This document shows positions 22,725-61,264 of a stretch of DNA of 64,000 nt, one piece after another. The DNA is from an uncultured Gammaproteobacteria bacterium (lineage in GTDB: Bacteria; Patescibacteriota; Microgenomatia; UBA8517). The DNA lies in NCBI GenBank assembly GCA_964568925.1, contig CAZMSJ010000002.1, positions 12,339-76,338 of the forward strand, in the 5' to 3' direction. A program made the position numbers and the translations under genes. Below the pieces are notes generated by a model. The model had not been told where the DNA came from. It worked only from the letters and a program-made list of their open reading frames with translations, and did no database searches. Position 1 is the first letter of the stretch. Each line of letters opens with the position of its first letter.

Positions 22725-23410
22725 AACTCATTCATTTTGTATTGATATTTTTAGTCCCCTGGTCTCTTGTTTTAATTCCAAACATTACAGTATTCGCACT
22801 CGTTTTTCTTGTGGTATATATTTCAATTTTTCATGAGAAGAAACGGGGACTACTATTCTTTTCAATTATCTTTTTGTGTGTTGTCCAACTAATTCACCTT
22901 GAAAAGGAACCACTTATCGAGAAGAGCCCAAGTAATGATATTGAAATAAAAAATAATTTGGCTGCATATCCACCACTTCGGGTCCCAATTGCGTATTGGT
23001 TTGAACAAAAAACTATTACACAAGAAGTGTATGCACTGACAAAGCGAGGCAGTATTGTTTTAAGTCCATCTCTCTATTTCTTTTCTAACCACCCACGAGA
23101 GCGGTCCGGTTTTCGAGAATTTGAAAAGTTTCAATATGTTCTCCTTCCGTTTTTTGTCATTGGTCTTTTGAGTAGACTGCGTGACAAAACATATCTTCAA
23201 TTAGGCTTACTATTTTCATTACCTTTTCTTTTACTTACTTTTTATGGAAGTAGAGGAGAATTAGGTCCGTTTGCAATGTTTCCGTTCTTAGCTGTAAGTA
23301 TCTACCATGGTTTGGAATTTACTTTTAAGAATCACAAGAAAGCATTCTTTTTATTTATGATGATTTTTGTCTTTGTTTCAATACAAACATATGCGTACAC
23401 GATTTACTAA
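22721..23410 (+). CDS. Truncated paralogue of the array GT-C family (C-terminal TM bundle only, no catalytic DE loop)
   Basis: 229 aa. LSPSLYFFSNHPRERSGFREFEKFQYVLLPFFVIGLL aligns by eye with YFSPQFLLFEGPHE...IEFVGLFGLLLI and its equivalents in the six full-length paralogues. ATGA overlap with paralogue A. Confidence 0.5.
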   Translation: MKLIHFVLIFLVPWSLVLIPNITVFALVFLVVYISIFHEKKRGLLFFSIIFLCVVQLIHLEKEPLIEKSPSNDIEIKNNLAAYPPLRVPIAYWFEQKTITQEVYALTKRGSIVLSPSLYFFSNHPRERSGFREFEKFQYVLLPFFVIGLLSRLRDKTYLQLGLLFSLPFLLLTFYGSRGELGPFAMFPFLAVSIYHGLEFTFKNHKKAFFLFMMIFVFVSIQTYAYTIY

Positions 23411-26325: not shown

Positions 26326-26369
26326 TCGTTGATCAATTGTTGTAAGTAACTTTTTCACCTAAAAGACGC

Positions 26370-26375
26370 TATACT
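26370..26375 (+). promoter_or_regulatory. -10 box TATACT, 6 nt before ATG 26382
   Basis: It lies in a 56-nt gap with no SD. Confidence 0.35.
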
Positions 26376-26381
26376 ATCTTC

Positions 26382-45719: not shown

Positions 45720-47115
45720 AAAAGTGCTTATTGTAGGGGCTGGTGTTGCCGGTCGCAATGTTGTGTCTCAAATCACAAAAAACAGTGATTTCGGGCTGAA
45801 AACGGTGGGTTTTATTGACGATAATATTGAGATCGGAGAAAAGATAAAAGGTTTTCCAATTCTAGGGAAGAGAAATGATTTACCGAAGATACTTAAAGAG
45901 AAAAAAATTGATCAAGTTATTATAGCTATCCCTTCGGCTGAAGGAAGTGCAATTGCTGAATATGTAAAAATTTGTAGTAACGCGAGAGTTGCAGCAAGAA
46001 TAGTACCAAGAGTAAAAGAAATTATTGAGGGCAAAGCACACGTTAAAACCCTCCGAGAAGTACGAGTTGAAGATTTGCTCGGTAGACCAGTTGTTAAATC
46101 TGATGTAAATACATTGTTTGATTTTTTCTCAGATAAAGTTGTACTTATTACTGGTGCCGCAGGTTCAATTGGTTCTGAACTCTCAAGACAGGTCGCCGCA
46201 TATAAACCAAAGCAGTTAATACTTCTTGATTGGTGGGAAAATGGTTTGTTCGATATACAACAAGAACTCTTACAAACGTTTCCTCGACTATCATTGGATT
46301 TCGTCATCGCAAATATTCAGGATGTTGAAAATCTGGATCATGTTTTCAAAAAATATAAGCCTCATTATGTTTTTCATGCTGCTGCATACAAGCATGTTCC
46401 TTTAATGGAAGACCATCCAGTTCAAGCTGTTAAAAATAATATATTTGGCACTCAGAATGTAGCTCAAACTGCCAAGAAGTATGCGGTCGAACGGTTTGTT
46501 CTTATTTCTACTGATAAGGCCGCAAGTCCAGTGAATGTCATGGGAGCAACAAAACTTGTTACTGAAGGAATCGGGAAAAGTTTAAATGGAAAGACGAAAT
46601 ATATGGCAGTACGCTTTGGTAACGTTCTTGATAGTTTTGGTAGTGTTATTCCGACATTTAAGAAGCAAATTGCCAAAGGTGGACCACTCACCATTACTGA
46701 CAAAAGAATGACACGATATTTTATGACCATACCTGAGGCCGCTCAACTTATTTTAAAGGCAGGCCAAATGGGAAATGGGGGAGAATTATATGTTTTGGAT
46801 ATGGGGGAACCTGTAAAAATTGTAGATTTGGCAGAAAATCTGATTCGTTTGTCAGGCTATATTCCCGGAAAAGATATTGAAATAGCATCCACAGGAATTC
46901 GTCCTGGTGAGAAACTAAAAGAGAAGCTTTTAAACAAGAAAGAAACTCTTGTTTTAACCCAGGACCCTAAAATCTTTAGAACCGAAAGCTTGGGGTTTGA
47001 TATTGAGAAATTGGAAGAATCGCTTACAAATTTAAAACGGTGCGTTGATGCTGGTGATGGTCAGTCTATTCGTAAAGTTCTTTCACGTCTCATTCCTACT
47101 CTAAAAGTTCGTTGA
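45700..47115 (+). CDS. CapD/PglF/WbpM-like NDP-sugar 4,6-dehydratase, soluble form without N-terminal TMs
   Basis: Motifs LITGAAGSIGSEL, FHAAAYKHVPLME, ISTDKAASPVNVMGATK. The N-terminal Rossmann-like linker domain reads VLIVGAGVAGRNV. Confidence 0.8.
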   Translation: MSKTKFKKVLIVGAGVAGRNVVSQITKNSDFGLKTVGFIDDNIEIGEKIKGFPILGKRNDLPKILKEKKIDQVIIAIPSAEGSAIAEYVKICSNARVAARIVPRVKEIIEGKAHVKTLREVRVEDLLGRPVVKSDVNTLFDFFSDKVVLITGAAGSIGSELSRQVAAYKPKQLILLDWWENGLFDIQQELLQTFPRLSLDFVIANIQDVENLDHVFKKYKPHYVFHAAAYKHVPLMEDHPVQAVKNNIFGTQNVAQTAKKYAVERFVLISTDKAASPVNVMGATKLVTEGIGKSLNGKTKYMAVRFGNVLDSFGSVIPTFKKQIAKGGPLTITDKRMTRYFMTIPEAAQLILKAGQMGNGGELYVLDMGEPVKIVDLAENLIRLSGYIPGKDIEIASTGIRPGEKLKEKLLNKKETLVLTQDPKIFRTESLGFDIEKLEESLTNLKRCVDAGDGQSIRKVLSRLIPTLKVR

Positions 47116-47145: not shown

Positions 47146-49224
47146 ATGCGTTTAAAGCTTTCACTTTTCCTCGGTGTTCTTTTCTTTGTAGCTGGGCTTG
47201 CAACCCTACCTCATTACGGAATTAACTGGGACACCATTAACCACTTGCCTCGAGGACAAGCATATTTAAGATATATGCTCACGGGAAAGACCAACTACAA
47301 TGATATGCAAGGTCTCTTTCAAGATTGGTTTAAATCAAGTGACTGGTTTTTTCAAAACCCAGACTCATTATTTGTCCAAACGAACTTACCTGAAGGGAAA
47401 TTTGTAAGCAGGAGTTACTATCAGAATGACAGTTTAAATTACGAATATTTTATAGAGCATGATGGAGGAGGACATCCACCGCTTAGTGATATCTTGTCAG
47501 CTGCTACAAACCGATTACTGTACTCAAAGCTTCGCCTTATTAACGATGTCGATGCCTACCATGTATATGGAGTAGTATTGGCTGCAGCTTTGATTGGTCT
47601 TGTTTATTATTGGACATCCCTCCGGTATGGCACAGGCGCAGGACTTATCGCAGCTCTGTCGCTTGCCACCTATCCTCTCTTTTGGGCAGAGTCACACTTC
47701 AATACTGAAAAGGATATCCCTGAAGCCGTTTTCTGGTCTTTCTTTATGTTCGCTGTGTGGAGTGCAGTAAAGACTAAAAAGCTTCGATGGTTTTTGTTAA
47801 GTGGTCTTTTTGCCGGACTTGCACTTGGTACAAAATTTAATATTCTGTTTAGCGTTTTTGTCATTGTTCCCTGGTTCTTTATGTATCTTTTCGCTCGTAA
47901 AGATCGGTTTAAGTTCGCTCTCAAATATGTAAAAAGTGTAAAAGTTTGGTTTGGGTTTCTGTTAATACCTGTGTTAATGGTTGGAGTCTTTATTTTATTC
48001 TGGCCATATTTGTGGGCAGACCCAATTGGTAGAGTGCAGTCTGTAATTTCTTTTTATAAAGAAATTGGAACAACGAGTAGTGATTTGGCCCGTTTTAGAA
48101 CACTTTTGGGATTTAATCTATTTCCTCTTATTTGGATTATTACAACTACCCCACCGATTGTGTTGGCTTTATCAGTAATTGGAATTATCTATTCTGCTAT
48201 TAAAGGGTTAAAGAGTGAGGATCACTTTGAATATCTCATACTCTTTTGGCTCCTTGTTCCAATAGCTCGAGTTGTTTGGCCACACGCAAATACCTATGGA
48301 GGAGTGAGACAGTTGATGGAGTATATTCCGGCAATGGCTATTCTGTCAGGAATTGGATTTTCTGCGCTTCTGAGTTTCTCTAGAAAGTATATGTATATGG
48401 CCCAAGCGTCTGTCGCTGTTGTTTTAATAGGTTTTGTCGTGTTAGTTAGTACCCTTATTAAAATTCATCCAAACGAAAATGTGTATTTCAATAGCCTCAT
48501 TGGAGGATTGTCTGGTGCAAAAGAGCAAAACCTTCCATTTTGGGGTTTTAGCTTTGGAAATCCGTATCGTCAGGCAATTTCTTGGATCAATGCAAATGCA
48601 GAAGAAAACGCCACCCTTGTTTTTGCATATGAACTTATTCCTAATTTCCCGAGGTTATGGTTACGCCCTGATATTTTCCTCATAAATGCAGAGCGAAGTG
48701 GTTATCTTCAGAAAGGGGAGTACGCTGTCACTCTTAATTATCAAGGAACAGACACCCGTTCCTACTACGATCTGTTTCTCACGAAGTATGTAAACCCTGT
48801 CTATACATCAAAGGTCGATGGAGTACCGGTTGTGACGGTTTGGAAAAACGATAAGGCTCATCTGAGTAAATCAATTGATGAACACGAAGTTCGAGGCGCA
48901 AGCTTTACCACAGACGATACGGGTATTCTTATTTCATTTAAAGAACCTATTCCACTTTGGAGAATTGAGATCGATTTTTCAGAAAAGAATTGTAAGAAGC
49001 TTGTCTGGGGGTATACACAAACCTCACTCGATATGAAAACCTGGGATCGATTACCTGGAACACTTCCTGAAGATTGGAGAATCTCAGCAATGGGTGAGCA
49101 GCCAAAGGCCGGTCGCTTTATCGAACCATTTGTTGGTGATAAAGCTCAATATGTTCGTTTTAATCTAAACCCAGTGGAAGCTTGTTTGAAGAAGATAACG
49201 AAGCTAAAGGTGTTTTCTCTTTAA
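47146..49224 (+). CDS. GT-C-fold membrane glycosyltransferase (PMT_2/ArnT-like) with a C-terminal beta-rich putative carbohydrate-binding domain
   Basis: 692 aa with LPHYGINWDTINHLPRGQAYLRY...HDGGGHPPLSD and about 11 TMs. The C-terminal ~115 aa (WRIEIDFSE...TSLDMKTWDRL...AQYVRFNLNP) looks discoidin-like. Confidence 0.6.
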   Translation: MRLKLSLFLGVLFFVAGLATLPHYGINWDTINHLPRGQAYLRYMLTGKTNYNDMQGLFQDWFKSSDWFFQNPDSLFVQTNLPEGKFVSRSYYQNDSLNYEYFIEHDGGGHPPLSDILSAATNRLLYSKLRLINDVDAYHVYGVVLAAALIGLVYYWTSLRYGTGAGLIAALSLATYPLFWAESHFNTEKDIPEAVFWSFFMFAVWSAVKTKKLRWFLLSGLFAGLALGTKFNILFSVFVIVPWFFMYLFARKDRFKFALKYVKSVKVWFGFLLIPVLMVGVFILFWPYLWADPIGRVQSVISFYKEIGTTSSDLARFRTLLGFNLFPLIWIITTTPPIVLALSVIGIIYSAIKGLKSEDHFEYLILFWLLVPIARVVWPHANTYGGVRQLMEYIPAMAILSGIGFSALLSFSRKYMYMAQASVAVVLIGFVVLVSTLIKIHPNENVYFNSLIGGLSGAKEQNLPFWGFSFGNPYRQAISWINANAEENATLVFAYELIPNFPRLWLRPDIFLINAERSGYLQKGEYAVTLNYQGTDTRSYYDLFLTKYVNPVYTSKVDGVPVVTVWKNDKAHLSKSIDEHEVRGASFTTDDTGILISFKEPIPLWRIEIDFSEKNCKKLVWGYTQTSLDMKTWDRLPGTLPEDWRISAMGEQPKAGRFIEPFVGDKAQYVRFNLNPVEACLKKITKLKVFSL

Positions 49225-50159
49225 AGGTATTTGTTTTTAATAATGTTCTCAATACTGTCTCTCTTTTGGTTGTAGCTTGCTATCATTTCCCCCATAAGCC
49301 CCGTAACGATAAGTTGTACTCCAATGATCATAAGCAGCATACCTAAAATAAGTAATGGTTGGTGAAATTGTATTCCTCCAGTCGTGATACGAAGATAGGT
49401 AATGTAGAGCCCAATTGCAAATCCACCAGAAAAAGATAATAACCCGAAACCGCCAAAAAAGTGACCTGGTCTGCGAATGTATCCAGTTAAAAACACCACC
49501 GTTAAGAGGTCCAAGAATCCCTTTATATTTCTTTCAATTCCGAATTTAGATTTTCCAAACTTTCTTGGATTATGTTTAACAACAATTTCGCCAACCTTGA
49601 AGTTTTGTTTTGCAGCCAGCACCGGGATATAGCGATATTGTTCACCATAGAGGTTAAGTGATTCAACGACTTCACGACGATATGCCTTATATCCACAGTT
49701 TGTATCGTGAACAGAAACTCCAGTTACTTTTCGAATAATAAAGTTTAGGATTCTAGATGGAATAACTTTGGATACTGGATCATGTCGCACCTTTTTCCAT
49801 CCTGATACTAAATCGTAACCTTCTGCGATTTTTTTAAGAAAACGTGGAATTTCATCAGGTTCATCTTGAAGATCAGCATCAAGAGTGAAAATAATTTCTC
49901 CCTTGGTATGCATAAATCCAGTTTCAAGTGCCATAGACTTTCCCCAATTTCCCCGGAGAGCGATTACTTTAATCTGTTTGTTTTTCTTGCGTAAATCAGT
50001 GAGTTTTTGGAGCGTTTTGTCTGTCGACCCGTCGTCGACAAATATAATTTCGTATTTTCGTTTCAATTTAAGGCAGACAGATTCAATCTTCTTAGCCAAA
50101 ATGGCAACAGATTCTTCCTCGTTCTTAGCTGGTATTACAAAACTTAATATATCTTTCAT
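49221..50159 (-). CDS. GtrB/ArnC/CsbB-like polyprenol-phosphate glycosyltransferase (GT2 with two C-terminal TMs)
   Basis: Motifs LSFVIPAKNEEES, IIFVDDGSTDKT, TLDADLQDEPDEIP, and C-terminal TMs GGFGLLSFSGGFAIGLYITYL and LLILGMLLMIIGVQLIVTGL. SD AAGAGGA lies 7 nt upstream of the ATG. Confidence 0.8.
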   Translation of the reverse strand: MKDILSFVIPAKNEEESVAILAKKIESVCLKLKRKYEIIFVDDGSTDKTLQKLTDLRKKNKQIKVIALRGNWGKSMALETGFMHTKGEIIFTLDADLQDEPDEIPRFLKKIAEGYDLVSGWKKVRHDPVSKVIPSRILNFIIRKVTGVSVHDTNCGYKAYRREVVESLNLYGEQYRYIPVLAAKQNFKVGEIVVKHNPRKFGKSKFGIERNIKGFLDLLTVVFLTGYIRRPGHFFGGFGLLSFSGGFAIGLYITYLRITTGGIQFHQPLLILGMLLMIIGVQLIVTGLMGEMIASYNQKRDSIENIIKNKYL

Positions 50160-50180
50160 ACAAATATCCTCTTTTCGTGT

Positions 50181-50189
50181 ATGATATCA
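50181..50189 (-). promoter_or_regulatory. Extended -10 TGaTATCAT (minus strand), followed by a leader carrying SD AAGAGGA (plus-strand 50167-50173) before ATG 50159
   Basis: The reverse complement of 50181-50189 reads TGATATCAT. It overlaps a plus-strand TATGAT (50180-50185) that faces the divergent gene at 50203. Confidence 0.35.
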
Positions 50190-50202
50190 CTAGACTTACG
50201 GT

Positions 50203-51015
50203 ATGCCAAAAGTAACAATAATTATTACCACTAAGAATTCTGCAAAAACACTAGAACCTCTCCTTTCTAGCCTCAAAAAGCAGACGTACACTGATTTTGA
50301 GACTCTTGTTGTTGATAACAATTCAACTGATGTAACGAAGGAGATTTCAAATAAGTACAAAGCCTCTTTTTTTACAAAAGGGCCTGAGCGGAGTGTCCAA
50401 AGAAATTTTGGGGCAAGTAAGGCTAAGGGGAAATACCTCTTTTTCCTTGATTCGGATATGACTTTAAGTGAAACAGTCATTGCTGATTGTGTGAAGAAAA
50501 TCTCTACTTCAGACTCAATTGGTGGTGTAATTGTTCCAGAGAAATCTTTTGGAAATAATTTCTGGGCAAAAGCAAAAGCCTTTGAGCGTGAAATCAATGA
50601 AGGTGAGGCTTATTTCGAAGCAGCACGGTTTTTCCCGACAAAGGTTTTTGAAGAATTTAAAGGATACCAGCCTGATATAACTGGCCCGGAAGACTGGGAT
50701 CTTCCCAAGCGTATCTCGAAAAAATATCAAATAAAAAGAATTAGTAGTTATATTTTCCATAACGAGGGTTCTCCTACTCCACTAAAACTTATGAAACGAA
50801 AATATTACTATGGTTTAACAGCACATATTTATTTGCAAAAAAACAATCTACCTACTTTTAGCAGTCAAACGGTCTATCTTTTGCGGCCGGCTTTTTACCG
50901 CCAATGGAAAAAATTACTTTCTAAACCATTGTTAACACTTGGTATGATCGTTTTGTTGTTTTTTGAAACATTGGGAGGGGGAGTTGGGTACATTCGGGGT
51001 AGATTCTCAATATGA
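50203..51015 (+). CDS. GT2 glycosyltransferase
   Basis: Motifs KVTIIITTKNS, LVVDNNSTDVT, FLDSDM. Confidence 0.75.
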   Translation: MPKVTIIITTKNSAKTLEPLLSSLKKQTYTDFETLVVDNNSTDVTKEISNKYKASFFTKGPERSVQRNFGASKAKGKYLFFLDSDMTLSETVIADCVKKISTSDSIGGVIVPEKSFGNNFWAKAKAFEREINEGEAYFEAARFFPTKVFEEFKGYQPDITGPEDWDLPKRISKKYQIKRISSYIFHNEGSPTPLKLMKRKYYYGLTAHIYLQKNNLPTFSSQTVYLLRPAFYRQWKKLLSKPLLTLGMIVLLFFETLGGGVGYIRGRFSI

Positions 51016-52034
51016 AAAAGCCACTTGTTTCAATTATCATCGTAAATTACAACGGGTATGACGTACTGGTCCCTTGCATTAAAAGTCTTCAAAAGCTTGA
51101 GTATTCAAATTTTGAAATAATTATTGTTGATAACGGTTCGGAGGATGCTTCAATTGAGTTTATTAAGAATTTGAAAATTAAGAATGTATCGTTAATTCAA
51201 AGCTCAGAAAATCTTGGATTTGCAGGAGGAAACAATTTAGCACTAACCAAAGCAAAAGGTGAATACTTATTGCTCTTAAACAACGATACGGTTGTCCCAT
51301 CAAATCTATTAACAGTTCTCGTTGATAAGCTTGAACAAGACCCAACAATCGGTGCCCTACAGCCAAAAATCAAATTTATGGATGAACCAAAGCGCCTCGA
51401 TAACGCGGGTGCATTTTTAAATAGACTAGGGCTAACGGTTCATTGGGGGTTTGGAGAGATTGATCGTGATGAATTCGATCATGAAGCAGAAATATTCAGT
51501 GCAAAGGGTGCATGTCTACTTACCAGATCATCACTTGTAAAGCATATCGGCTTATTTGATGATCATTTTGGATCATACTTTGAAGAAAGTGACTTTTGTT
51601 GGAGAGTATGGCTTGCGGGCTTTCGAGTCATCTATTACCCAAAAGTATCAATTTTGCATAAGGTTGGCTTTACCAGCGAAAAGATGGACACTGTTTTTGT
51701 GATGTTACATTCCACAAAAAACCGTATATTTTCGCTTTTTAAAAACCTTTCATTCATAAATCTCTTTTTGATATTTCTACCTCATCTCGCATTTTTGTGT
51801 ATGCTTGGAACATACTACTTAGTTAAGTTACAGCCTAAAAAGGCATGGATGCTTTTTGGAGCGATCTGGTGGAACATAACTCATGCTGGTCTGTTAGCTA
51901 AAGAGCGGAGTGCAACCCAAAAATTACGTACTGTCTCTGACATTTCGTTAACCAATAAAATCATGAGGCCACTTGATATACCAGCTCTCTTTCGTCATTT
52001 TAAAAAGGTAGAAGCAAATTTAGATAGAACCTGA
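51012..52034 (+). CDS. GT2 glycosyltransferase with C-terminal TM segment(s)
   Basis: Motifs VSIIIVNYNG, IIIVDNGSEDAS, NLGFAGGNN, LLNNDT, FEESDFCWR. Hydrophobic tail FINLFLIFLPHLAFLCMLGTYYLV. ATGA overlap. Confidence 0.8.
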   Translation: MKKPLVSIIIVNYNGYDVLVPCIKSLQKLEYSNFEIIIVDNGSEDASIEFIKNLKIKNVSLIQSSENLGFAGGNNLALTKAKGEYLLLLNNDTVVPSNLLTVLVDKLEQDPTIGALQPKIKFMDEPKRLDNAGAFLNRLGLTVHWGFGEIDRDEFDHEAEIFSAKGACLLTRSSLVKHIGLFDDHFGSYFEESDFCWRVWLAGFRVIYYPKVSILHKVGFTSEKMDTVFVMLHSTKNRIFSLFKNLSFINLFLIFLPHLAFLCMLGTYYLVKLQPKKAWMLFGAIWWNITHAGLLAKERSATQKLRTVSDISLTNKIMRPLDIPALFRHFKKVEANLDRT

Positions 52035-52040
52035 TACAGT
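52032..52040 (+). promoter_or_regulatory. Extended -10 TGaTACAGT, 6 nt before ATG 52047 (leaderless candidate)
   Basis: The TGA of the motif is the stop codon of the upstream gene. Confidence 0.45.
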
Positions 52041-52046
52041 ATCACT

Positions 52047-52715
52047 ATGAAATCTTTTCCAAAGACTATACCAATTAATGGTCGAGTACGTGTATGTTTA
52101 GAATTGTTGCGTGGGGAGAGTATTAAAAACAAACAAATTATTGATGTTGGATCTACGTTTGGTTGGTTAGCTCGTGAAATAGAGAAGGATAAGCCTAAGG
52201 GATATATTGGAGTGGAGCCAAATGCAGAAGCAGTAGCTTTTTCAAAAAAGAATGCTAAATACGCACAATTTTTCGAAGGAGATGCCGCACATATGCCGAT
52301 AAAAAATGGCATAGGAGACATTGCTGTTTTCTTTGATGTTATTGAACATGTCCCCGTTGATACTGAAATTGAATGTTTAAAAGAAATTCATCGTGTATTA
52401 AAGCCAAAAGCAACACTTCTTCTTTCAACCCCATTTGATCATCCGGTTACAAAATTACTAGATCCTGCCTACTATTTTGGACACCGTCACTATACAAAGG
52501 AAAGGCTACAAAAAATGCTAAAGCAGTCAGGATTTACATTAGAGAGTTTTGAAGTACGTGGTGGTTATGTTTCTCTGACATATATGATTCTTTTTTATAT
52601 AGCCAAATGGGTTTTCAATAAGGATCTTAATGGTACTTGGATTCAGAAAGAGGACGATAAGTCATATTCAAAAGAAGGTATCGCAACAGTGTATTTGAAG
52701 GCTGTTAAAAAGTAA
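52047..52715 (+). CDS. Class I SAM-dependent methyltransferase
   Basis: Motifs IIDVGSTFGWLA and VFFDVIEHVP. Confidence 0.7.
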   Translation: MKSFPKTIPINGRVRVCLELLRGESIKNKQIIDVGSTFGWLAREIEKDKPKGYIGVEPNAEAVAFSKKNAKYAQFFEGDAAHMPIKNGIGDIAVFFDVIEHVPVDTEIECLKEIHRVLKPKATLLLSTPFDHPVTKLLDPAYYFGHRHYTKERLQKMLKQSGFTLESFEVRGGYVSLTYMILFYIAKWVFNKDLNGTWIQKEDDKSYSKEGIATVYLKAVKK

Positions 52716-52717
52716 TA

Positions 52718-54328
52718 TTACCCTCGTTTTAATATCTTTGAAGGAATGGACTGCCCCATTGAGTGTTCAAATTGTTGGAGTCTATTATGTCCAATTTGAT
52801 TTAGCTGTAATTTCTCTCTGGTATAACCTTCTGCAATTTCTCTTAATTGTACTAATTCTTGTGCATTGAGATAGTCTGTCCACACATATGCCGTGTATTC
52901 TCCAGGTACACCTTTGTAGTAATTTGCATCTTTCAAATAATCGACTTCACTACTCCATAACCGGGCAACTTCGCCATTTTTTTTGTTTTTCATTTCATAC
53001 AACCACGCATTTCTTTCAGGTACATATACTGAGTGATCAAAATATGGTGAACCAGGGTATTGGGTGATAATTGTCCAGTCAACGTCGTCACCAACTGACA
53101 GGTTATTTGAAACCCACTCAATTGATTCTCCAATAGTTGTTTCACTCTCACCTGGATGTCCGATTGACATAAGTGCTTTGAAACTAAGACCTGCATTATG
53201 TGCGGTTTCTACACAGCGACTGTTAATTGCTCGTGAGGTGTGCTTTTTCATGACAGACAGTATGCTGTCGCTTCCAGATTCAACTCCAGACAAGAGTATT
53301 TTAAATCCTGCTTGATACATGAGACGAGCTTGCTCAGGGGTAAAGAGCTCAGCTTTGACAAAACCTCTAAATCTCATTTCATGCCCCAATCTGTCTTGCA
53401 TATCAATTAGCCCGGTACAGAGTTTTTCAAGGTTTGATGGAGAAACATTCAATTCGTCATCGTAGAACATAACGCCACCGTAGGGGGTGTCAGTATCAAG
53501 TGAAGGAGTAACGACTGATTCAATTTCTCGAATCACATCGTTGATGTCTCGAGTTCGTGCTATTCGAAATACTTGTGAATCACGTCCTCCACAAAAACCA
53601 CATTCAAATGGACACCCAAGTTGGCCAATAACTGAGAATGCTCTTCTTCCGTCAATTGAATAATGGTAACTATCAAGATCAATTAAATGTCTTGCTGGAT
53701 GCTCAAAGCTTTCGAGTGTCCCTTTCTGTAAAAAGAGCGGTGACTTAGTCGTGCTGCTATCGATTACTTGTTGAGTTTGATCTGGGTCTATTGCATAAAA
53801 AATTGATTCTTCTCCATCACCTGACACTATGCGATCAAACAAATTTGTGAGCTGCATAAAGGCGTGTGTTCCACGTCCTTTTCTTCCTGTTTTTGCATCT
53901 TCAGTAAAAGCTGCGTGTGTAAGTGTCGCGTGTGGCCCTCCAAGGATGACTGTTGACTGTGAACTTACATCTTTGATTGCTTGAGTGATTGATGCTGCCG
54001 TTGGAATTTGTGGTGTCGTGGCTGTAATTCCATAAACGGCATCCTGATTTTCAGCTGCATATTGTCTGACGATATCAAGATAATTTGAGTAACCTGACAA
54101 ATCTAAAACATTTGTTTGATTTCCGTTTTTTGATAATTCAGCTGCAACTTTCAAAGGACCGAGAAACGGAAATACTCGTTCATCTGCAAGAAACGGAGAA
54201 GGGGGAATAACAATTGTTACTGGAATGTCTCGTACCTTTTCTTTTTGTTCCTGAAGGGGCGTAATGCGCTCAGAGAATTCGACGTTTGAGTTTGATGGAG
54301 ATTTTTGTTCGAATTCGTAACGTGACAT
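52718..54328 (-). CDS. B12-binding-domain radical SAM enzyme (class B rSAM)
   Basis: CxxxCxxC cluster motif GCPFECGFCGG. The N-terminal Rossmann-like domain (VTIVIPPSP...GPLKVAAEL...ITATTPQIP...VILGGPHATL) is typical of B12-binding rSAM proteins. Confidence 0.8.
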   Translation of the reverse strand: MSRYEFEQKSPSNSNVEFSERITPLQEQKEKVRDIPVTIVIPPSPFLADERVFPFLGPLKVAAELSKNGNQTNVLDLSGYSNYLDIVRQYAAENQDAVYGITATTPQIPTAASITQAIKDVSSQSTVILGGPHATLTHAAFTEDAKTGRKGRGTHAFMQLTNLFDRIVSGDGEESIFYAIDPDQTQQVIDSSTTKSPLFLQKGTLESFEHPARHLIDLDSYHYSIDGRRAFSVIGQLGCPFECGFCGGRDSQVFRIARTRDINDVIREIESVVTPSLDTDTPYGGVMFYDDELNVSPSNLEKLCTGLIDMQDRLGHEMRFRGFVKAELFTPEQARLMYQAGFKILLSGVESGSDSILSVMKKHTSRAINSRCVETAHNAGLSFKALMSIGHPGESETTIGESIEWVSNNLSVGDDVDWTIITQYPGSPYFDHSVYVPERNAWLYEMKNKKNGEVARLWSSEVDYLKDANYYKGVPGEYTAYVWTDYLNAQELVQLREIAEGYTREKLQLNQIGHNRLQQFEHSMGQSIPSKILKRG

Positions 54329-54334
54329 GATGCT

Positions 54335-54365
54335 AAAGTATCATGCAAACAACGTGAAGCGTCAA
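54335..54365 (-). promoter_or_regulatory. Promoter of the radical SAM gene: -35 TTGACG, 19-nt spacer, extended -10 TGaTACTTT, then 6 nt to ATG 54328
   Basis: The minus strand reads TTGACGCTTCACGTTGTTTGCATGATACTTTAGCATC-ATG. Confidence 0.45.
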
Positions 54366-54371
54366 GCTATA

Positions 54372-55070
54372 TTATCTTAATTGCCACCACAGTTTAAATG
54401 CGTTGGAAAATGTAGCAAACACTACGTTCCACTTTGCGTTTTTCACTTCACCAGAAATTCTTGGATGATAATAACTTGGTGCTTCTACAATTCGTAGACC
54501 TTTCTTTCGGAATTTAACAAGAATCTCAGTCAGGATAAATATGCCACCCAACGCTTCAAGTCTCACTCTTTTAACAGCATTTGTTCTCCATATATTTACC
54601 CAGCCAACATCCATGTATTTAACATCAAACAACATAAGAAGAAGCAACAGATATCCATATGAGAAGAATATTCGTTTTGTTGCATAATCGGTTCTTCCTC
54701 CTCGATACCCGAGTATCAAGTCAGCTTCATCAAGAACCTCAAAACAGTGGCGCATATCATCTACCAGAAATTGACCATCAGCTGGCATGTATGCAACAAA
54801 TTCCTTTGTAGATTTTTTAATTCCAGCAAGCATTGCTCTACTAAATCCAACATTTTTATCCATCTGAACAACTGTGACTTCTTTGCATTTCTCAGCGACT
54901 TGCTTTGCAATTTTGGCTGTTTTGTCATGACTTCCATCATCAACTAGGATTATTTCCCAGTCTTTAAAATACTTTGGAAGTTTTTTGATTGAATCCCTAA
55001 GCACAAGTCGAACGTTTTCTTCTTCGTTGTATGCAGGAATTACAATTGAAATTGAGTGTCCTTTCTTCAT
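54372..55070 (-). CDS. GT2 glycosyltransferase, DPM1-like candidate polyprenol-phosphate sugar synthase
   Basis: Motifs ISIVIPAYNEEEN, IILVDDGSHDKT, YMPADGQF. ATG 55070 (MKKGHSISIV) is preferred over the ORF-track TTG 55091 because TGaTATAGT sits 7 nt upstream of it. Confidence 0.7.
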   Translation of the reverse strand: MKKGHSISIVIPAYNEEENVRLVLRDSIKKLPKYFKDWEIILVDDGSHDKTAKIAKQVAEKCKEVTVVQMDKNVGFSRAMLAGIKKSTKEFVAYMPADGQFLVDDMRHCFEVLDEADLILGYRGGRTDYATKRIFFSYGYLLLLLMLFDVKYMDVGWVNIWRTNAVKRVRLEALGGIFILTEILVKFRKKGLRIVEAPSYYHPRISGEVKNAKWNVVFATFSNAFKLWWQLR

Positions 55071-55077
55071 AAGCCAC

Positions 55078-55086
55078 ACTATATCA
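55078..55086 (-). promoter_or_regulatory. Extended -10 TGaTATAGT (minus strand), 7 nt before ATG 55070
   Basis: The minus strand reads CTGATATAGTGTGGCTT-ATG. Confidence 0.4.
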
Positions 55087-55116
55087 GTCAATTGCCATTT
55101 ATTCTATAAATAAATT

Positions 55117-55125
55117 TGCTACAAT
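55117..55125 (+). promoter_or_regulatory. Extended -10 TGcTACAAT, 6 nt before GTG 55132 (leaderless candidate)
   Basis: Exact TGnTACAAT match in a divergent 61-nt region. Confidence 0.45.
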
Positions 55126-55131
55126 CGACTG

Positions 55132-55779
55132 GTGAAGCAAAACGCAAAAAACAAAGTCATTAGTCTCTATCAGAAGGGTAGTTATACTCGTCTCTTCTCA
55201 TATATACGTTTTTGGGATGCACCCTACTCACAAGTAGAAAAGCTTATTCCAAAAAAAGGCACAATAGTTGAACTAGGTTGCGGTGAAGGGCTCTTCAGCA
55301 ACTTCCTTGCTGTTTCAGAACCAAAAAGAAAAGTTATTGGTATTGAGATTGATAAAAATCGTTTTAAAAATGCAGATAAGGGTTTACCAAATGCCACTTT
55401 CTCATATGGTGACATAACAAAGGTTACGATTCCAAAAGCTGATACTGTAGTGCTTTTCCATGTATTGCATCACCTTCGTTCATATACAGCACAATCCACA
55501 CTCTTAAGACGTGTTTCTTTAGGTATCCCTAAAAACGGGCGATTGATTGTGGTTGAGGTTGAACCAGTATTTTCATTCAAATATTTTGTAACTTGGTTTA
55601 CTGATCATTTCTTAGTACCTTGGCTTTTTGAAAAACGATTCTATTCGCCTATTTATTTTAGAGAGGCACAGGATTGGAAGGAACAATTTACTGAACTTAA
55701 TTTTGATGTAAAGATAAAGCGATATCGAAAAAATATGCCGTTTTCACATATTGTCTATGAATGTATCAAGATTAAGTAA
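55132..55779 (+). CDS. Class I SAM-dependent methyltransferase
   Basis: GTG start. Motifs IVELGCGEGLFS and VVLFHVLHHL. Confidence 0.75.
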   Translation: MKQNAKNKVISLYQKGSYTRLFSYIRFWDAPYSQVEKLIPKKGTIVELGCGEGLFSNFLAVSEPKRKVIGIEIDKNRFKNADKGLPNATFSYGDITKVTIPKADTVVLFHVLHHLRSYTAQSTLLRRVSLGIPKNGRLIVVEVEPVFSFKYFVTWFTDHFLVPWLFEKRFYSPIYFREAQDWKEQFTELNFDVKIKRYRKNMPFSHIVYECIKIK

Positions 55780-57949
55780 AAGTAGATTTGGAATTATCAT
55801 TCTTGTAGTGCTTTTTTTCGGTGGACTTTTCAGATTTCTTGGAGTTAACCCTGGCTTTAATCAGTTTCATTCTGATGAGGGGATATCATACTCAGCAGCC
55901 GTTTCAATGCTTCGAAACAGTAATTTTGATCCGCTTCGATACGACTATCCAGCTCTTGTTCCAGAAGTGAATTGGCTTACTTTCCGCTTTATTTTTACGC
56001 CACTATATTGGACAAAGTATTACATTACAAATATTAATCAAATGATTGATGGCTATTTGCCATACATTCCCAAAGAAGTGGATATGAATCGTATTTTTCA
56101 AAACGATATTTTGGGGAACAGAGAGATTAATGCACTTTTTTGGGGAAGATATACTACAGCATTTGTCAGTACTGCTTCAATTTTTGCTCTGTATTTACTC
56201 GCACTACGTTTGTTTAATCGGAAGGTTGCAATACTTTCTGCTATTTTTCTCGCATTTCATTTTAGATCAGTTACAAATTCACACTTGGGGTTACCTGACA
56301 CGTATAACGCATTTTTCTTGTTATTTTCACTGATTGCATCTTGGAGTATTCAAAAATATCCAACAAAGGGATCATATATATTAGCTGGTGTTGCTGTGGG
56401 ATTGAGTTTAGCAACAAAGTATCAGGTCTTTGCAATTTTACCTTTTATCTTTTCTCACATACTTCGATATTGGAATCCACAGAAACCTCGTTCTTTTTTC
56501 TCCATCTTTAAGGACTTTAAGATAGTAATTGCTGGTTTATCAGCGGTATTTGTTTTTATTATCCTAAACCCGTACCTAATTATTAACTTTGATTTCGCAA
56601 CCTATTCAATTCACGAAGTGTCTTTAAAGTATGCAATGGGAAAGAGTGTAATTTCACTATTTCCTCTCCACTATTGGATTTTTAATGATTTTGGGTTAGT
56701 GCTTGTTGGTGTAATTTTTGCAGGTATTCTTTTTTCTCTGTATCTAAGATCTTCACAAGCTCTTTTTCTTTTATGTCATGTAATTCCATTCCTTTTCGTC
56801 ATGTTGTATTACTCAAATGGAGGTTTTTATGTGAGAAATTTTATTACGGTTTCACCGCTATTTTTACTGTTTGCGGCTTGGCTTGTTGTAGAAATATATA
56901 CATTCCTTCGAAGATTTAATCTTTTATTTGCAAGTTTTGCGACAGCGGCTCTCATTTCTCTTCTGGTTTATATGCCTATCACAAACATTTTGATACATAC
57001 TCGTGAATACCAAAAACCTTGGAACTATAAAACAATTGTTGAGGATGTCCGTTCCGTTTTACCTAAAAATGCTGTGGTTGTAGGGCATCCTTTTGATCCT
57101 CTTCCTTCTGAACTAGAACCGAAACGCATTTCAATAAGTACTGCAAATCTTTATTCTTTGCAGGAATTTCGTAAGGTGAAGGCAGATTTTGCTCTTATAA
57201 ATATGGATTGGGCAGCCGATCCATTTTATGGATGGATGACTTCAGCTGGTAGGGAATCTTTGTCTTATGTGTTGCACAAGCCATATGACCAAATGAGAGA
57301 GACGTATTGGGGCCTTTCAATTGAGGAAATGATGCATTATGCGGTTACTGGTCGGTATAAGCCATGGCAAGCTCCAGAAGCAAACTTGTTTTTAATAGCT
57401 GTTCCACAATTTACCTCATATACATTTAGTTCCCCAGATCAAGTAACACTCGACACGAAGTGGAGGAAGATGAACCAATCTGATGCTCCTAATACTTTTT
57501 TGCTGTTACGAGAGAACAACACATTAGCACTAGGCCCAGGTTCAGGAAAGTTTGGCATTGCACGCTTTGTCTCTCCAGAAATGCCCGTGGAACCAGGAGT
57601 TGTGTATCGGTTGAGTGCACAACTTGAGTCTGAAAAAGATTTTGCAAACGCGACACCAAACGTTTTTATACGTGTTGATTTTTACAATAAAGAACAAGGA
57701 AAAATCCTCACTTCTGTATCAGATAGATTTGTTGGTAAAAAAGGTAGTATTGAGGTTCTTACTCAGGTACCACCTAATGCCCAATATTTAACGATTTCAT
57801 ATCAGGCTACAAACGCGCTTGCAGGGTCTGTAATGTTGTCTTCAGTTTCAATGGCAAAGGCGAAAGCAAAGGAACCATTCCCACAACAATTTGTATCATT
57901 TTCTGATTATCAAGATCTTTTGTATCCAAACTCTCATGGGAATTTATAA
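55751..57949 (+). CDS. GT-C-fold membrane glycosyltransferase (PMT_2-like) with a C-terminal CBM_4_9-like jelly-roll domain
   Basis: 732 aa. Loop FNQFHSDEGISYSAAVSMLRN after TM1, and about 12 TMs. The C-terminal ~145 aa (PGVVYRLSAQLESE...FIRVDFYNKEQ...YLTISYQATN..GSVMLSSVSM) resembles carbohydrate-binding modules. Confidence 0.6.
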   Translation: MSMNVSRLSKSRFGIIILVVLFFGGLFRFLGVNPGFNQFHSDEGISYSAAVSMLRNSNFDPLRYDYPALVPEVNWLTFRFIFTPLYWTKYYITNINQMIDGYLPYIPKEVDMNRIFQNDILGNREINALFWGRYTTAFVSTASIFALYLLALRLFNRKVAILSAIFLAFHFRSVTNSHLGLPDTYNAFFLLFSLIASWSIQKYPTKGSYILAGVAVGLSLATKYQVFAILPFIFSHILRYWNPQKPRSFFSIFKDFKIVIAGLSAVFVFIILNPYLIINFDFATYSIHEVSLKYAMGKSVISLFPLHYWIFNDFGLVLVGVIFAGILFSLYLRSSQALFLLCHVIPFLFVMLYYSNGGFYVRNFITVSPLFLLFAAWLVVEIYTFLRRFNLLFASFATAALISLLVYMPITNILIHTREYQKPWNYKTIVEDVRSVLPKNAVVVGHPFDPLPSELEPKRISISTANLYSLQEFRKVKADFALINMDWAADPFYGWMTSAGRESLSYVLHKPYDQMRETYWGLSIEEMMHYAVTGRYKPWQAPEANLFLIAVPQFTSYTFSSPDQVTLDTKWRKMNQSDAPNTFLLLRENNTLALGPGSGKFGIARFVSPEMPVEPGVVYRLSAQLESEKDFANATPNVFIRVDFYNKEQGKILTSVSDRFVGKKGSIEVLTQVPPNAQYLTISYQATNALAGSVMLSSVSMAKAKAKEPFPQQFVSFSDYQDLLYPNSHGNL

Positions 57950-60560
57950 AGCTATTTTAAAGTATCTTCACACCTTCCCTGCTTTTCTTTTTCTTGTTGC
58001 ATTAATTTCCTCAGGGCAAATGATGCTTATGTATATATGGAAAGATGACAATGCGATATTTTTTAAATTCACTCATTTAGCTGAACCAGCCGGGTATCTG
58101 GGTCGAGGTCTATTTGGAGAAGGCCCATACAAATTATCAGTGGCACCCTATTGGTTCATTTATAAACTGGTTGGTTACAGTCCTGTTTTCCCATATTACA
58201 TATTGGCTTTTGCTACCTATTTTGCTGCAATCCTCGCAGTCTATTTGTTGTTCACTCTTTTCTTTGAAAAAAAGACTGCAAAAATCAGTGCGTTTCTTTT
58301 TGCGTCAGGTTACATAGCGTCCGAAGGTTTTTATTGGCTTGCAAGCTCTTGGATTTTGAGTGTATCAATTATCCTTACTGTTTTAGCCGTAGCTGCGACC
58401 TATGTGTACACACAAAAGCCTACGAAGTTATATTATCTTTTTTCAGTTGCATCATACCTCCTCGCTTTGTTAGTTACTCCTGTGAGAACTCACTATGTTA
58501 TTGCACTTGTCCTACTCATACATTTTTTGTGGGGTAAGTATGAATTTACATTGAGAGGACTAGGGGGACTTGTTATTCGACTCACACCGTATCTATTTCT
58601 TTTTTATTGGTTTTATATCCTATCAGCTGATTCTCGGACCACCTCATTTGGTGATTTTTTTAGATCACTTCTGCATGGTGATTTGTATGTACTTTATTCC
58701 TCTCTTACAACCACGGGAAGTATGTTTATCACTGATTTACAATGGAATGTCATTTTAAAGTTGAGTCGCCCACTATTTGGAAGGAATATTTTGAGCACTT
58801 TTGTTGTACTTACCTTTACCGCACTAACCTCAGTTCTTTTATATCGAAAGTCAAGTAAACGATTAACCACTGGAATTGCCGTACTCTATATTGTTTCCTC
58901 GTTCATCATTTTTCTCCTTAGCAGAAAAATAATTTTCTCTCCACAAATTAATAGTTTTGCTGGGGCAGTGTTTGTTACATCCTTTGGTGGTATTATCCTT
59001 GCATTTTTTACGTTCCTTTCTCTTGTTGTCTCAAAAGAGAATAGGAAAACAATATTGTTTTTCTTAATGTGGTTTATTACAAGCTTGATTGTGTATACGG
59101 CGTATATCCCAACCAGTAGTTATGCAACGATTGATCGATACCTTGGGCACTCTTTTATTGCTGTAGCAGTTTTATATGGACTGCTCGCTACCTATACCAA
59201 ACGTAGAATTATTACGGTTCTTGTTATCGTATTTGGAGCACTAAACATTTTTGCCTCAATTCAAACCCAACGTACAATTGTTCAAACGAGAAGTATCCTA
59301 GCTCGTTCCTTTTACACCCAGTTAGCAGAACAACTACCAATCCTTACCAAAGGTGACACATTGTATTTTGACTTGAGTCCAAAAGGGCGTGAAGTCTTTG
59401 CTGCAGCTTTCTCTGTGGGTCAAATGCCAGAGTCTACTGCTCTTGCGTGGAGGTATGGTTTAGACCGGTATGATTTTAATCTTGTGACTGACTATTCGGA
59501 CTTAGTAAAGAAAGTAGAAAGCAAAAAAGTTGATCAGCAAAAGATTCATACATTTTACTTTGACGGAATTAAATTGCTTGATACAACAAACGAGTATCAG
59601 AGAAAAAACAAAGACACTAAAATAGATTTTACCCTTGGTGGTCGATTGCTCGATGAATATACATTTATGCAACCCACATCTTCAGTACGTGAAGTTCACT
59701 TTGAAATTGTAATGACAGCTTTCCCAAAACGGTTATTGATAACAGATTTTCCAGTTATGACCAGTACTATCGATCCGATTGTTAAGGATGCTTCTTTTCA
59801 AGCTGTTGCAAAAAAGTATCTCGCATTTCGAGCAGCTAGTGTAAAAACCCTCGAGGCAACATCCTCAAGTCAGTGGCAAGAAAGAGTAATCGCAAATATA
59901 CACGATAATAATGAAAATACCGTTTGGCAGCCTGATCGTATATTGTGGCACGATGGTTTACAAAGTTTTACGCTTGATACTGGTGCAGTACAAAACATTG
60001 ATCGATTGGTTTGGAAGAATGGCTTTGATAACAATACTCCGACAGACTATATAATCTTTGTTTCAAAAGACAATCAAAATTTTGAAGAAGTATTGCATAT
60101 TGAAAAGACAAGAAAACTACTTGGAGGACAGCTACAAGAAGAACGTTTCACACCTAAGAGCGCCAGATTTGTACGAATGCAGATAGTAAAAAGCTTGAAT
60201 GATGATGCACCTGGTATTAGTGAGGCTTGGGTTATACCAAGTGAGTTTGCTAATTATTCTGCAAACGATCTTGAGGCTTACTACAAACATCCATTTGCTT
60301 ATATCCCTGACTTAAAATCGTATATCCAAAGCTTACAAACTTTAAATTACAAAGGTATCTTGAATTTTTACTGGTTTAACAACAAGAATATGACGTTCCA
60401 AACAAGCGAGACAAGCAATTTTGAGGTAGTTTACGATGGCAAGCCACACAGCTACAAATTTACTGTCCCAGCAGGAGGTACAGAATTACTAAAACTTCGG
60501 TTAGAAAGTACAACCATACCTGGCGAGGTTCAAATAACACAAATAAAACGAACACAATGA
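57936..60560 (+). CDS. Large polytopic membrane protein (GT-C candidate) with a C-terminal F5/8-type-C (discoidin) domain
   Basis: ATG 57936 is preferred over the ORF-track 57891. After TM1 the loop is YIWKDDNAIFFKF, followed by about 12 TMs. The discoidin-like segment is EATSSSQWQERVIANIHDNNENTVWQ...FTLDTGAVQNIDRLVW...YIIFVSKDNQNFEEV...ARFVRMQIV...ISEAWV. Confidence 0.6.
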   Translation: MGIYKAILKYLHTFPAFLFLVALISSGQMMLMYIWKDDNAIFFKFTHLAEPAGYLGRGLFGEGPYKLSVAPYWFIYKLVGYSPVFPYYILAFATYFAAILAVYLLFTLFFEKKTAKISAFLFASGYIASEGFYWLASSWILSVSIILTVLAVAATYVYTQKPTKLYYLFSVASYLLALLVTPVRTHYVIALVLLIHFLWGKYEFTLRGLGGLVIRLTPYLFLFYWFYILSADSRTTSFGDFFRSLLHGDLYVLYSSLTTTGSMFITDLQWNVILKLSRPLFGRNILSTFVVLTFTALTSVLLYRKSSKRLTTGIAVLYIVSSFIIFLLSRKIIFSPQINSFAGAVFVTSFGGIILAFFTFLSLVVSKENRKTILFFLMWFITSLIVYTAYIPTSSYATIDRYLGHSFIAVAVLYGLLATYTKRRIITVLVIVFGALNIFASIQTQRTIVQTRSILARSFYTQLAEQLPILTKGDTLYFDLSPKGREVFAAAFSVGQMPESTALAWRYGLDRYDFNLVTDYSDLVKKVESKKVDQQKIHTFYFDGIKLLDTTNEYQRKNKDTKIDFTLGGRLLDEYTFMQPTSSVREVHFEIVMTAFPKRLLITDFPVMTSTIDPIVKDASFQAVAKKYLAFRAASVKTLEATSSSQWQERVIANIHDNNENTVWQPDRILWHDGLQSFTLDTGAVQNIDRLVWKNGFDNNTPTDYIIFVSKDNQNFEEVLHIEKTRKLLGGQLQEERFTPKSARFVRMQIVKSLNDDAPGISEAWVIPSEFANYSANDLEAYYKHPFAYIPDLKSYIQSLQTLNYKGILNFYWFNNKNMTFQTSETSNFEVVYDGKPHSYKFTVPAGGTELLKLRLESTTIPGEVQITQIKRTQ

Positions 60561-61264
60561 AGAAAAAGGTGGTTATCGTTCTCCCTGCATATAACGCTGC
60601 AAAAACTCTTAAAAAAACAGTAGATGATATCCCAGACAAAGGATACAAAATCATTCTTGTTGATGACATGAGCAAGGACAATACTGTGCGCTTAGCACAG
60701 AAAATGGGTTTAGAAGTTTTTAAACATCCCCAAAATCGAGGTTACGGAGCAAACCAAAAGACCTGCTACACAATCGCACTATCAATAGGTGCAGATATCA
60801 TTGTGATGATACACCCAGATTATCAGTATGACGCGACAAAAACTGAAGATATGGTACGCCCTATTCAAAAAGGCGAAGTGGACATAATGCTTGGTTCACG
60901 TATCCGAACTCGTAAAGAAGCACTTGCGGGTGGTATGCCCTTTTACAAATATATAAGCAACAGGTTTTTAACGATTGTCGAAAATATTGTACTTGGACTT
61001 AACCTTTCTGAATATCATACTGGGTATAGAGCATACAGTCGTGAAGCACTTGAAAAAGTCCCTTTCCATAAATTTTCTGATGATTTTGTTTTCGATCAGC
61101 AAATGTTAATCAGTGCAGCAAAATTAGAATTATCTATTGGTGAGATTCCTGTACCTGTTCGCTATTTTTCGGAAGCGTCATCTATTGGTCTTATAAAATC
61201 GATACGTTATGGTACTATGACGATAATCTATTTATTTTTGTCAATATTTACTCGAGATGAATAA
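60557..61264 (+). CDS. GT2 glycosyltransferase, DPM1-like candidate polyprenol-phosphate sugar synthase
   Basis: Motifs VVIVLPAYNAAKTL, IILVDDMSKDNT, MIHPDYQYD, YHTGYRAY. ATGA overlap. Confidence 0.7.
   Translation: MKKKVVIVLPAYNAAKTLKKTVDDIPDKGYKIILVDDMSKDNTVRLAQKMGLEVFKHPQNRGYGANQKTCYTIALSIGADIIVMIHPDYQYDATKTEDMVRPIQKGEVDIMLGSRIRTRKEALAGGMPFYKYISNRFLTIVENIVLGLNLSEYHTGYRAYSREALEKVPFHKFSDDFVFDQQMLISAAKLELSIGEIPVPVRYFSEASSIGLIKSIRYGTMTIIYLFLSIFTRDE

Follow-up and report, generated by a model that had tools for sequence, protein, structure and literature searches.

Results

Three membrane glycosyltransferases with long soluble tails

The 64,000-nucleotide stretch of DNA analysed here (the window) is part of contig CAZMSJ010000002.1 from an uncultured groundwater-type bacterium, has a G+C content of ~38% and finds its closest relatives in metagenome-assembled genomes (MAGs) of Woesebacteria, Daviesbacteria and other Microgenomates/Patescibacteria. 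The whole window (1-64000) is one glycan-assembly super-locus, and three of its genes, all on the forward strand, encode membrane proteins of the GT-C glycosyltransferase type whose C-terminal tails carry beta-sandwich domains related to carbohydrate-binding modules (CBMs). P1 (47146..49224, +) is a 692-amino-acid (aa) PMT_2-type glycosyltransferase, of the kind annotated as 'GT39', with a 255-aa tail; P2 (55751..57949, +) is a 732-aa PMT/PMT_2-type glycosyltransferase with a 324-aa tail; and P3 (57936..60560, +) is an 874-aa GT-C-type membrane protein with a tail of 433 aa, all three tails being predicted to lie outside the cytoplasm. The open reading frame (ORF) of P3 opens at 57891 or 57936, and the ATG at 57936 is the start used by its relatives and gives the 874-aa product. 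An earlier reading of the DNA letters by a model, made without database searches (the original prediction), had singled out these three products as GT-C proteins with lectin-like C-terminal domains, and the peptide strings it quoted were all found in the translations of P1, P2 and P3. Conservation was assessed in family sets of 44 relatives for P1, 62 sequences for P2, and 31 and 53 relatives for P3, the latter complemented by an 87-sequence profile.

The membrane parts of all three proteins are of the GT-C type, in agreement with the original prediction. In Pfam searches, P1 matched PF13231 (PMT_2; E 3.6e-12, 47.2 bits vs a cut-off of 26.1), and P2 matched both PF02366 (PMT; E 4.7e-11, 43.2 bits vs 22.7) and PF13231 (E 3.6e-7, 31 bits vs 26.1). 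The membrane half of P3 had no Pfam match of its own and did not pass the PMT or PMT_2 cut-offs directly, and PMT_2 was matched directly in few of its relatives (4/31 and 4/53, best 4.1e-7). Its assignment comes from profile-profile comparison and from structure. The 87-sequence profile of the P3 transmembrane (TM) region aligned to the window's own PMT_2 paralogs with an hhalign probability of 94.6% (E 7.2e-8, 169 columns) and to the N-terminal part of P2 with 83% (E 9.3e-6), while a profile of 31 sequences gave no significant match to P1 or P2 (0.3 and 16%); the homology is thus significant only with the 87-sequence profile and with the window's paralog family as the target. The full-length AlphaFold model of P3 (m71653f3f495e; predicted local distance difference test score, pLDDT, 88; predicted TM-score, pTM, 0.80) matched the arabinofuranosyltransferase AftD in Foldseek (6w98, 6wby and 6wbx, E 4e-7, 940-1300 aligned columns), and these three cryo-EM entries were the only top matches that were not CBMs and the only full-length structural matches. 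The catalytic motif of GT-C enzymes usually sits directly after the first TM segment, and acidic residues occupy this place in all three proteins: an invariant D29 in P1, an invariant D42 and a near-invariant E43 in P2, and a near-invariant D37 and an invariant D38 in P3. Searches of the PDB with sequence profiles of the P1 and P2 families returned no GT-C chain, no CBM chain and no solved PMT or ArnT.

Alignment-averaged hydropathy, calculated with a simple home-made script rather than a trained predictor, delineated 11 hydrophobic TM segments in P1, 11 in P2 and 13 in P3, the last number being consistent with the modelled helices of that protein. All three proteins have a basic N-terminus. 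The short loops alternate between lysine/arginine-rich (2.1-5.5 K/R per loop) and lysine/arginine-poor (0-1.2) in all three. Taken together, the odd number of segments, the cytoplasmic N-terminus and the positive-inside pattern suggest that the first loop, which is long, and each of the tails lie outside the cell, the orientation on which the original prediction depended.

A CBM32-type discoidin domain in P3

P3 carries a genuine F5/8-type-C (discoidin) domain of the CBM32 kind at aa 641-768 (59856..60239, +), recognized by PF00754, PF22633, profile matches to the PDB and Foldseek. The PF00754 alignment spans aa 641-753 (nt 59856-60194) and positions 2-115 of the 127 in the profile, and its score is far above the cut-off (E 8.5e-13, 49 bits vs 28.2); the segment coincides with the one predicted to hold such a domain in the product starting at 57936 (~59850-60240). 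PF22633 was also matched (33.4 bits vs 27.8), and the domain is kept in 31/31 and 52/53 of the P3 relatives. PF24607, the Pfam model of an AftD CBM, matches 6/31 and 7/53 of them. In searches of the PDB, the P3 family profile found the CBM32 modules of Clostridium perfringens at E 4.5e-12. The domain is modelled with a pLDDT of ~90-97, and Foldseek superimposed the P3 model on CpGH89CBM32-5 (4a41) with a TM-score (normalised by target) of 0.81, a root-mean-square deviation of 2.7 Å and 22% identity, followed by 2v72 (0.79) and 4lqr (0.76). Several loop residues of the domain are strongly conserved (W647, D657, W664, R668, W671, N695 and P702).

The discoidin domain is flanked by two further soluble regions. 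Preceding it is a region of alpha/beta and beta structure (aa ~467-640; 59334..59855, +), delimited from the secondary structure of the model, to which no family could be assigned and which contains the conserved motifs FSVGQMPETTA and DRYD. A small beta-sandwich follows it and ends the protein (aa ~790-874; 60303..60557, +); this domain, which has no family match, is modelled with five strands at E806-873 (pLDDT ~88-93) and contains a conserved PAGGT motif.

A CBM4/16/22-like jelly roll in P2

The P2 tail was modelled with high confidence from the 62 sequences (m3f3ef682927d; pLDDT 94, pTM 0.92) as an alpha/beta subdomain followed by a beta-sandwich. The first of these (aa ~421-550; 57011..57400, +) is made up of helices and strands at tail residues 17-146 and may be the soluble domain of the GT-C fold. 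The second is a CBM4/16/22-like jelly roll (aa ~559-709; 57425..57877, +) with strands at tail residues 159-303. Foldseek placed a CBM16 (2zew) on top of its PDB matches (E 5.7e-7, TM-score (normalised by target) 0.60), with a hyaluronan-binding module (CBM70; 4d0q), CBM22 (2w5f), CBM4 (1gui) and CBM15 (1gny) among the others; in total 240 matches were returned at E <= 0.001, the best with TM-scores (normalised by target) of ~0.6. The CBM_4_9 family of Pfam covers CBM4, 9, 16 and 22, and the fold match therefore bears out the CBM_4_9-like jelly roll that had been predicted at ~57437-57870 in the product starting at 55751. At the level of sequence profiles, the isolated tail matched nothing in Pfam or NCBIfam even at E <= 10, the PF02018 cut-off not being reached. 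Among the 62 P2 relatives one, P0185, came close to it (25.5 bits vs 25.9, aa 578-706, profile positions 2-129 of 136). A discoidin-like nature of the P2 tail was considered and rejected, the hhalign probability against the discoidin profile being <= 2%.

P2 ends in a near-invariant peptide, LYPNSHGNL (aa 724-732; 57920..57946, +), in which S728, G730, N731 and L732 are conserved in at least 90% of the 62 sequences and where the confidence of the model is lower. This peptide, which comes after the sandwich, may serve in docking or in sorting.

A truncated discoidin-like module in P1

The P1 tail ends in a discoidin-like module related to the F5/8-type-C family (aa 585-675; 48898..49170, +), identified by hhalign against the P3-family discoidin and by sub-threshold matches to PF00754. 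The final ~110 residues of the P1-family tail aligned to the P3-family discoidin with a probability of 96% (E 2.5e-9) over 83 columns, starting from template position ~40, while the controls, namely the P2 tail and the first half of the P1 tail, gave <= 2%. The description of the segment at ~48880-49221 in the product starting at 47146 as 'shorter discoidin-like' is accurate in view of this alignment (nt 48898-49170). Neither the P1 protein of the window nor its isolated tail matched PF00754, and the tail had no Pfam or NCBIfam match even at E <= 10. PF00754 appeared at E <= 0.1 in 14/44 of the P1 relatives, always below threshold, and the best of these, P0024, reached E 5.5e-6 and 27.0 bits (vs 28.2) over profile positions 35-111 only. 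The Pfam and hhalign alignments both begin at about position 35-40, and no counterpart of the N-terminal S-S-x-W and D-x-x-x-T-x-W motifs was found in either; the N-terminal third of the module thus appears truncated or strongly diverged. Two cysteines of this part of the tail, C616 (48991-48993) and C680 (49183-49185), are invariant across the 44 relatives; a disulfide between them is conceivable and would be in keeping with a position outside the cytoplasm.

The first part of the P1 tail (aa ~438-584; 48457..48897, +) is a highly conserved soluble region with invariant residues that include P442, E444, N449, W466, G467, Y474, R475, R517, S518 and G519. It had no Pfam match and no sequence match in the PDB, and it is probably the soluble domain of the GT-C enzyme. 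The first halves of the P1, P2 and P3 tails showed no detectable relationship to one another (hhalign <= 12%).

Taken together, the three domain calls of the original prediction and their coordinates are right, with a certainty that falls from P3 through P2 to P1. Of the Pfam families it had named as a check, PF00754 is well above its cut-off in P3, while PF00754 in P1 and PF02018 in P2 stay below threshold. A chance resemblance of the tails to CBMs was also considered, and was rejected on account of the above-threshold Pfam score, the family-wide conservation and the high-confidence models.

Gene neighbourhood and distribution

Both P1 and P3 adjoin genes for GT2 enzymes, recognized by PF00535 and phmmer. 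Convergent with P1 is a gene for an ArnC/GtrB-like polyprenyl-phosphate glycosyltransferase with C-terminal TM helices (49221..50159, -), which matched ArnC over its full length (9hwj, E 1.3e-50), the GtrB homologue sll0501 (4e-32) and dolichol-phosphate mannose synthase (DPMS; 2.8e-17). Downstream of P3, with its start overlapping the P3 stop codon, lies a gene for a DPMS-like GT2 (60557..61264, +), whose best matches were the DPMS of Pyrococcus furiosus (5mlz, E 2.8e-6) and ArnC (2.4e-4). ArnC/GtrB- and DPMS-type enzymes make the lipid-phosphate sugar donors used by GT-C transferases. P2 and P3 overlap by 14 nt (57936-57949), and P3 and the DPMS-like gene by 4 nt (60557-60560); this arrangement suggests co-transcription of P2, P3 and the GT2 gene, possibly with translational coupling.

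The wider locus encodes at least 13 polytopic GT-C-type ORFs (PMT_2, PMT, YfhO and PTPS_related), about a dozen GT2 enzymes and one GT4, two Wzx-like flippases (7855-9369 and 38085-39356), an ABC transporter (6021-7817), a PglF-like dehydratase (45700-47115) and five S-adenosylmethionine (SAM) methyltransferases. Six PMT_2 paralogs form a tandem array at 20952-34581 (starts at 20952, 23367, 26382, 29635, 31271 and 32947), with pairwise phmmer E-values of 1e-28 to 1e-90 and tails of ~140-160 aa each; the array is interrupted by a 424-aa membrane ORF (25051) and by an ORF of the PTPS_related/YfhO type (27968). A 536-aa B12-binding radical-SAM enzyme (52718-54328, -) is encoded between the GT-C genes, with methyltransferases on its flanks, and might modify a sugar, for example by C-methylation.

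All three families extend well beyond this window. For P1, more than 1000 Patescibacteria proteins of ~690 aa were related over the full length, named 'glycosyltransferase family 39 protein' by NCBI, and P2 has 110 relatives. At E <= 1e-30, the P3 profile retrieved 357 cluster representatives (clustered at 50% identity), the majority of which are 850-950 aa long and were matched over their whole length. The families tend to travel together, since a high-scoring P2-family gene was found within 6 kb of the P3-family gene in 9/16 genomic loci (directly upstream in 5) and a P1-like gene near it in 6/16. P3-family genes also occur as tandem duplicates, in a Woesebacteria genome and a Microgenomates genome (L006 5977-11351 and L007 3413-8721). 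MAG records L001, L004, L005, L009, L010, L012 and L013, which have the Microgenomates-type locus, are labelled 'uncultured Gammaproteobacteria bacterium', probably a mislabel.

Discussion

The combination of a GT-C enzyme with an extracytoplasmic CBM is an architecture already known from mycobacterial cell-wall enzymes, and it is common in Microgenomates. The view in the original prediction that such a fusion is unusual for ArnT/PMT-type enzymes therefore has to be abandoned, as CBMs on GT-C enzymes are documented in EmbA, EmbB and EmbC, in AftD and in the GT136 enzyme ORF12 (PMC11127046), and the families described here are large. The closest architectural parallel to P3 is AftD (PDB 6W98), in which the GT-C membrane domain is joined by a soluble GT-C domain and by CBMs of beta-sandwich fold that lie outside the membrane; one of these CBMs has been compared to the CBM32 structure 4A45 (bioRxiv 10.1101/2019.12.22.885152). 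AftD is, however, ~1400 aa long, has three CBMs, re-enters the membrane through additional TM helices at its C-terminus and binds an acyl carrier protein, whereas P3, at 874 aa and with an identity of ~9-11%, has one CBM32 and a small terminal beta-sandwich and is predicted to end outside the cell, in a Microgenomates host without arabinogalactan. The arabinosyltransferases EmbA, EmbB and EmbC likewise carry a C-terminal extracytoplasmic domain after the last TM segment, composed of two subdomains of which one is an acceptor-binding lectin-like CBM (PMC3044687). The P2 tail is built in this way too, its jelly roll coming after an alpha/beta subdomain. The models that P1 and P2 match are nevertheless those of PMT/PMT_2 (GT39/GT83-like), while EmbA, EmbB and EmbC are members of GT53.

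ORF12 of Citrobacter youngae O1 offers a third parallel, in which a GT-C enzyme with an extracytoplasmic CBM has a polyprenyl-phosphate-sugar synthase and a flippase as its partners (PMC11127046). Similar partners, namely the ArnC-like and DPMS-like synthases and flippase-like genes, are encoded in the same locus here. ORF12 differs in adding ribofuranose side chains to the O antigen of a Gram-negative bacterium as part of a three-component glycosylation system. Patescibacteria are not known to possess an outer membrane or lipopolysaccharide. P1 and P2 have the PMT/PMT_2 core and acidic residues in the first external loop in common with PMT and ArnT, and probably also a non-cytoplasmic soluble domain and a lipid-phosphate-sugar donor supplied by a GT2 of the DPMS or ArnC type. 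Eukaryotic PMTs have a beta-trefoil MIR domain in a loop and no C-terminal CBM, and ArnT differs in having only a small periplasmic domain and lipid A as its acceptor. The CBM32 modules of C. perfringens (NagH, NagJ, GH31 and GH89) are the closest relatives of the P3 domain in both sequence and structure, but they are appended to secreted hydrolases and not to membrane transferases.

These comparisons, set beside the domain identities, folds, predicted topology and gene neighbourhood presented above, make it rather probable that P1, P2 and P3 are GT-C glycosyltransferases of a cell-envelope glycan locus whose CBM-type modules hold the acceptor glycan near the active site. By analogy with the characterized enzymes, the adjacent ArnC/GtrB-like and DPMS-like GT2 enzymes would make a polyprenyl-phosphate-linked sugar on the cytoplasmic face, and this donor would then be flipped across the membrane. 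On the outer face, the GT-C membrane domain would transfer the sugar with the aid of the acidic residues conserved in its first external loop, while the beta-sandwich module, following the soluble GT-C domain, may bind the acceptor, which could be a polymer or the glycan of a glycoprotein, in the vicinity of the active site. Such binding would raise the local concentration of substrate and may help to select the glycan, or the stage of the glycan, that is extended. The acceptor-binding role is suggested by precedent. In EmbC, arabinan acceptors are bound by the lectin-like CBM at the C-terminus; the enzyme requires this module to be fully active, and mutation of the module's tryptophans inhibits the extension of lipoarabinomannan (PMC3044687). 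AftD has three periplasmic CBMs, and long branched arabinans were bound on glycan arrays (bioRxiv 10.1101/2019.12.22.885152). The CBM of ORF12 binds the O-antigen backbone, and CBMs are stated to occur in other GT-C enzymes (PMC11127046). For EmbC and AftD it is accepted that such modules tether the enzyme to the polymer on which it acts (PMC3044687; bioRxiv 10.1101/2019.12.22.885152), as put forward in the original prediction, and by analogy this would be a reasonable role here.

Several observations weigh against this interpretation. In CpGH89CBM32-5, the residues that bind galactose (Gal) or N-acetylgalactosamine (GalNAc) are a His (H1392) and an Asn (PMC11992087). The WH-motif His aligns to Q665 in P3, and its column holds Gln in 15, Arg in 13 and Glu in 3 of the 31 P3-family sequences and never His; the position of the Asn is mostly kept (N699 in 21/31). 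With the His replaced by Gln, and His absent from the family, the ligand of P3 is probably not bound in the manner of a canonical Gal-type CBM32, a point that bears on specificity and not on membership of the fold. The P1 module is without the first ~35 discoidin positions, which in CBM32 include the sugar-contacting WH-motif His, and with no Pfam CBM match in the P1 tail of the window its identification comes from sequence profiles. For P2, the CBM match is one of fold, with no Pfam CBM match and an identity of just 10-17%, so that assignment to the superfamily is supported and assignment to a family is not. The topology derives from our own hydropathy analysis and not from a dedicated predictor or experiment. 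Finally, the CBM of ORF12 is dispensable (PMC11127046), and the contribution of a module to activity may therefore be small.

Some of these observations would also fit an altogether different role, in which the beta-sandwiches are structural or protein-recognition domains, acting either as spacers that raise the enzyme to the level of the wall or as platforms on which a partner enzyme or a protein acceptor, such as an S-layer protein or a pilin, would dock. The PMT/PMT_2 families, of which P1 and P2 are members, were founded on protein O-mannosyltransferases acting on protein substrates, the P1 module is truncated, P3 is without the canonical His and has an additional unassigned beta-sandwich at its C-terminus, and in AftD itself the binding site of CBM2 is poor and one more beta-sandwich, the fourth, has been called structural (bioRxiv 10.1101/2019.12.22.885152). 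The nearest neighbours of the modules in structure and sequence are, however, overwhelmingly sugar-binding CBMs, the conserved loop residues of P3 fit a conserved ligand site, and the locus is dominated by genes of the polysaccharide type (Wzx-like flippases, many GT2 enzymes and a PglF-like dehydratase), all of which leaves a structural or docking role unlikely. Still less probable is a function of the modules as a molecular ruler or checkpoint that senses chain length or a terminal modification and controls termination or the hand-over among the three enzymes. Three different module types on three co-located GT-C enzymes would suit such a device, and the methyltransferases encoded between the genes could make terminal marks of the sort recognized by the CBMs of Wzt in ABC-transporter pathways (PMC11127046), but the known CBMs of GT-C enzymes are described as aids to substrate binding and not as rulers (PMC3044687; bioRxiv 10.1101/2019.12.22.885152). 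The models of the P2 tail and of P3 showed no coiled coil and nothing else resembling a ruler. It is highly improbable that modules of the discoidin type contact the membrane or a lipid-linked donor, much as phospholipid is bound by the C2 (discoidin) domains of coagulation factors V and VIII. PF00754 is named after the membrane-binding C domains of these factors, and the modules are tethered beside a membrane, but the best matches are bacterial sugar-binding CBM32 modules and not C2 domains, the neuropilin and factor-type matches are marginal (E > 0.01), and ~175 residues of another soluble domain precede the P3 module and would set it away from the bilayer, as for the CBMs of AftD. Each of these three explanations has less support than acceptor binding.

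That a CBM can hold an acceptor near the active site of a GT-C enzyme is a principle already established for EmbC and AftD, and to meet this design in a phylum far removed from Actinobacteria and Enterobacteria is an incremental step. In the literature we found no description of these Patescibacteria families, nor anything specific that links GT39, PMT_2 or discoidin proteins with Patescibacteria, the candidate phyla radiation (CPR) or GT-C enzymes. Bacteria of this group have small genomes and yet many GT-C genes. If the modules bind acceptors as proposed, the soluble tails might be used on glycan arrays and on cells to identify the acceptor glycans of CPR bacteria. A more speculative idea, which we put forward tentatively, is that the three families make up a conserved and co-located trio in Microgenomates and work as an ordered extracytoplasmic assembly or decoration line, in which each GT-C enzyme has its own type of CBM and its own lipid-sugar synthase. 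If true, the order of action would be encoded in the CBMs, which has not been described for GT-C enzymes outside mycobacteria, and distinct modules would set the stage of the glycan on which each enzyme acts, on a surface glycopolymer or glycoprotein of these ultra-small and probably episymbiotic bacteria.

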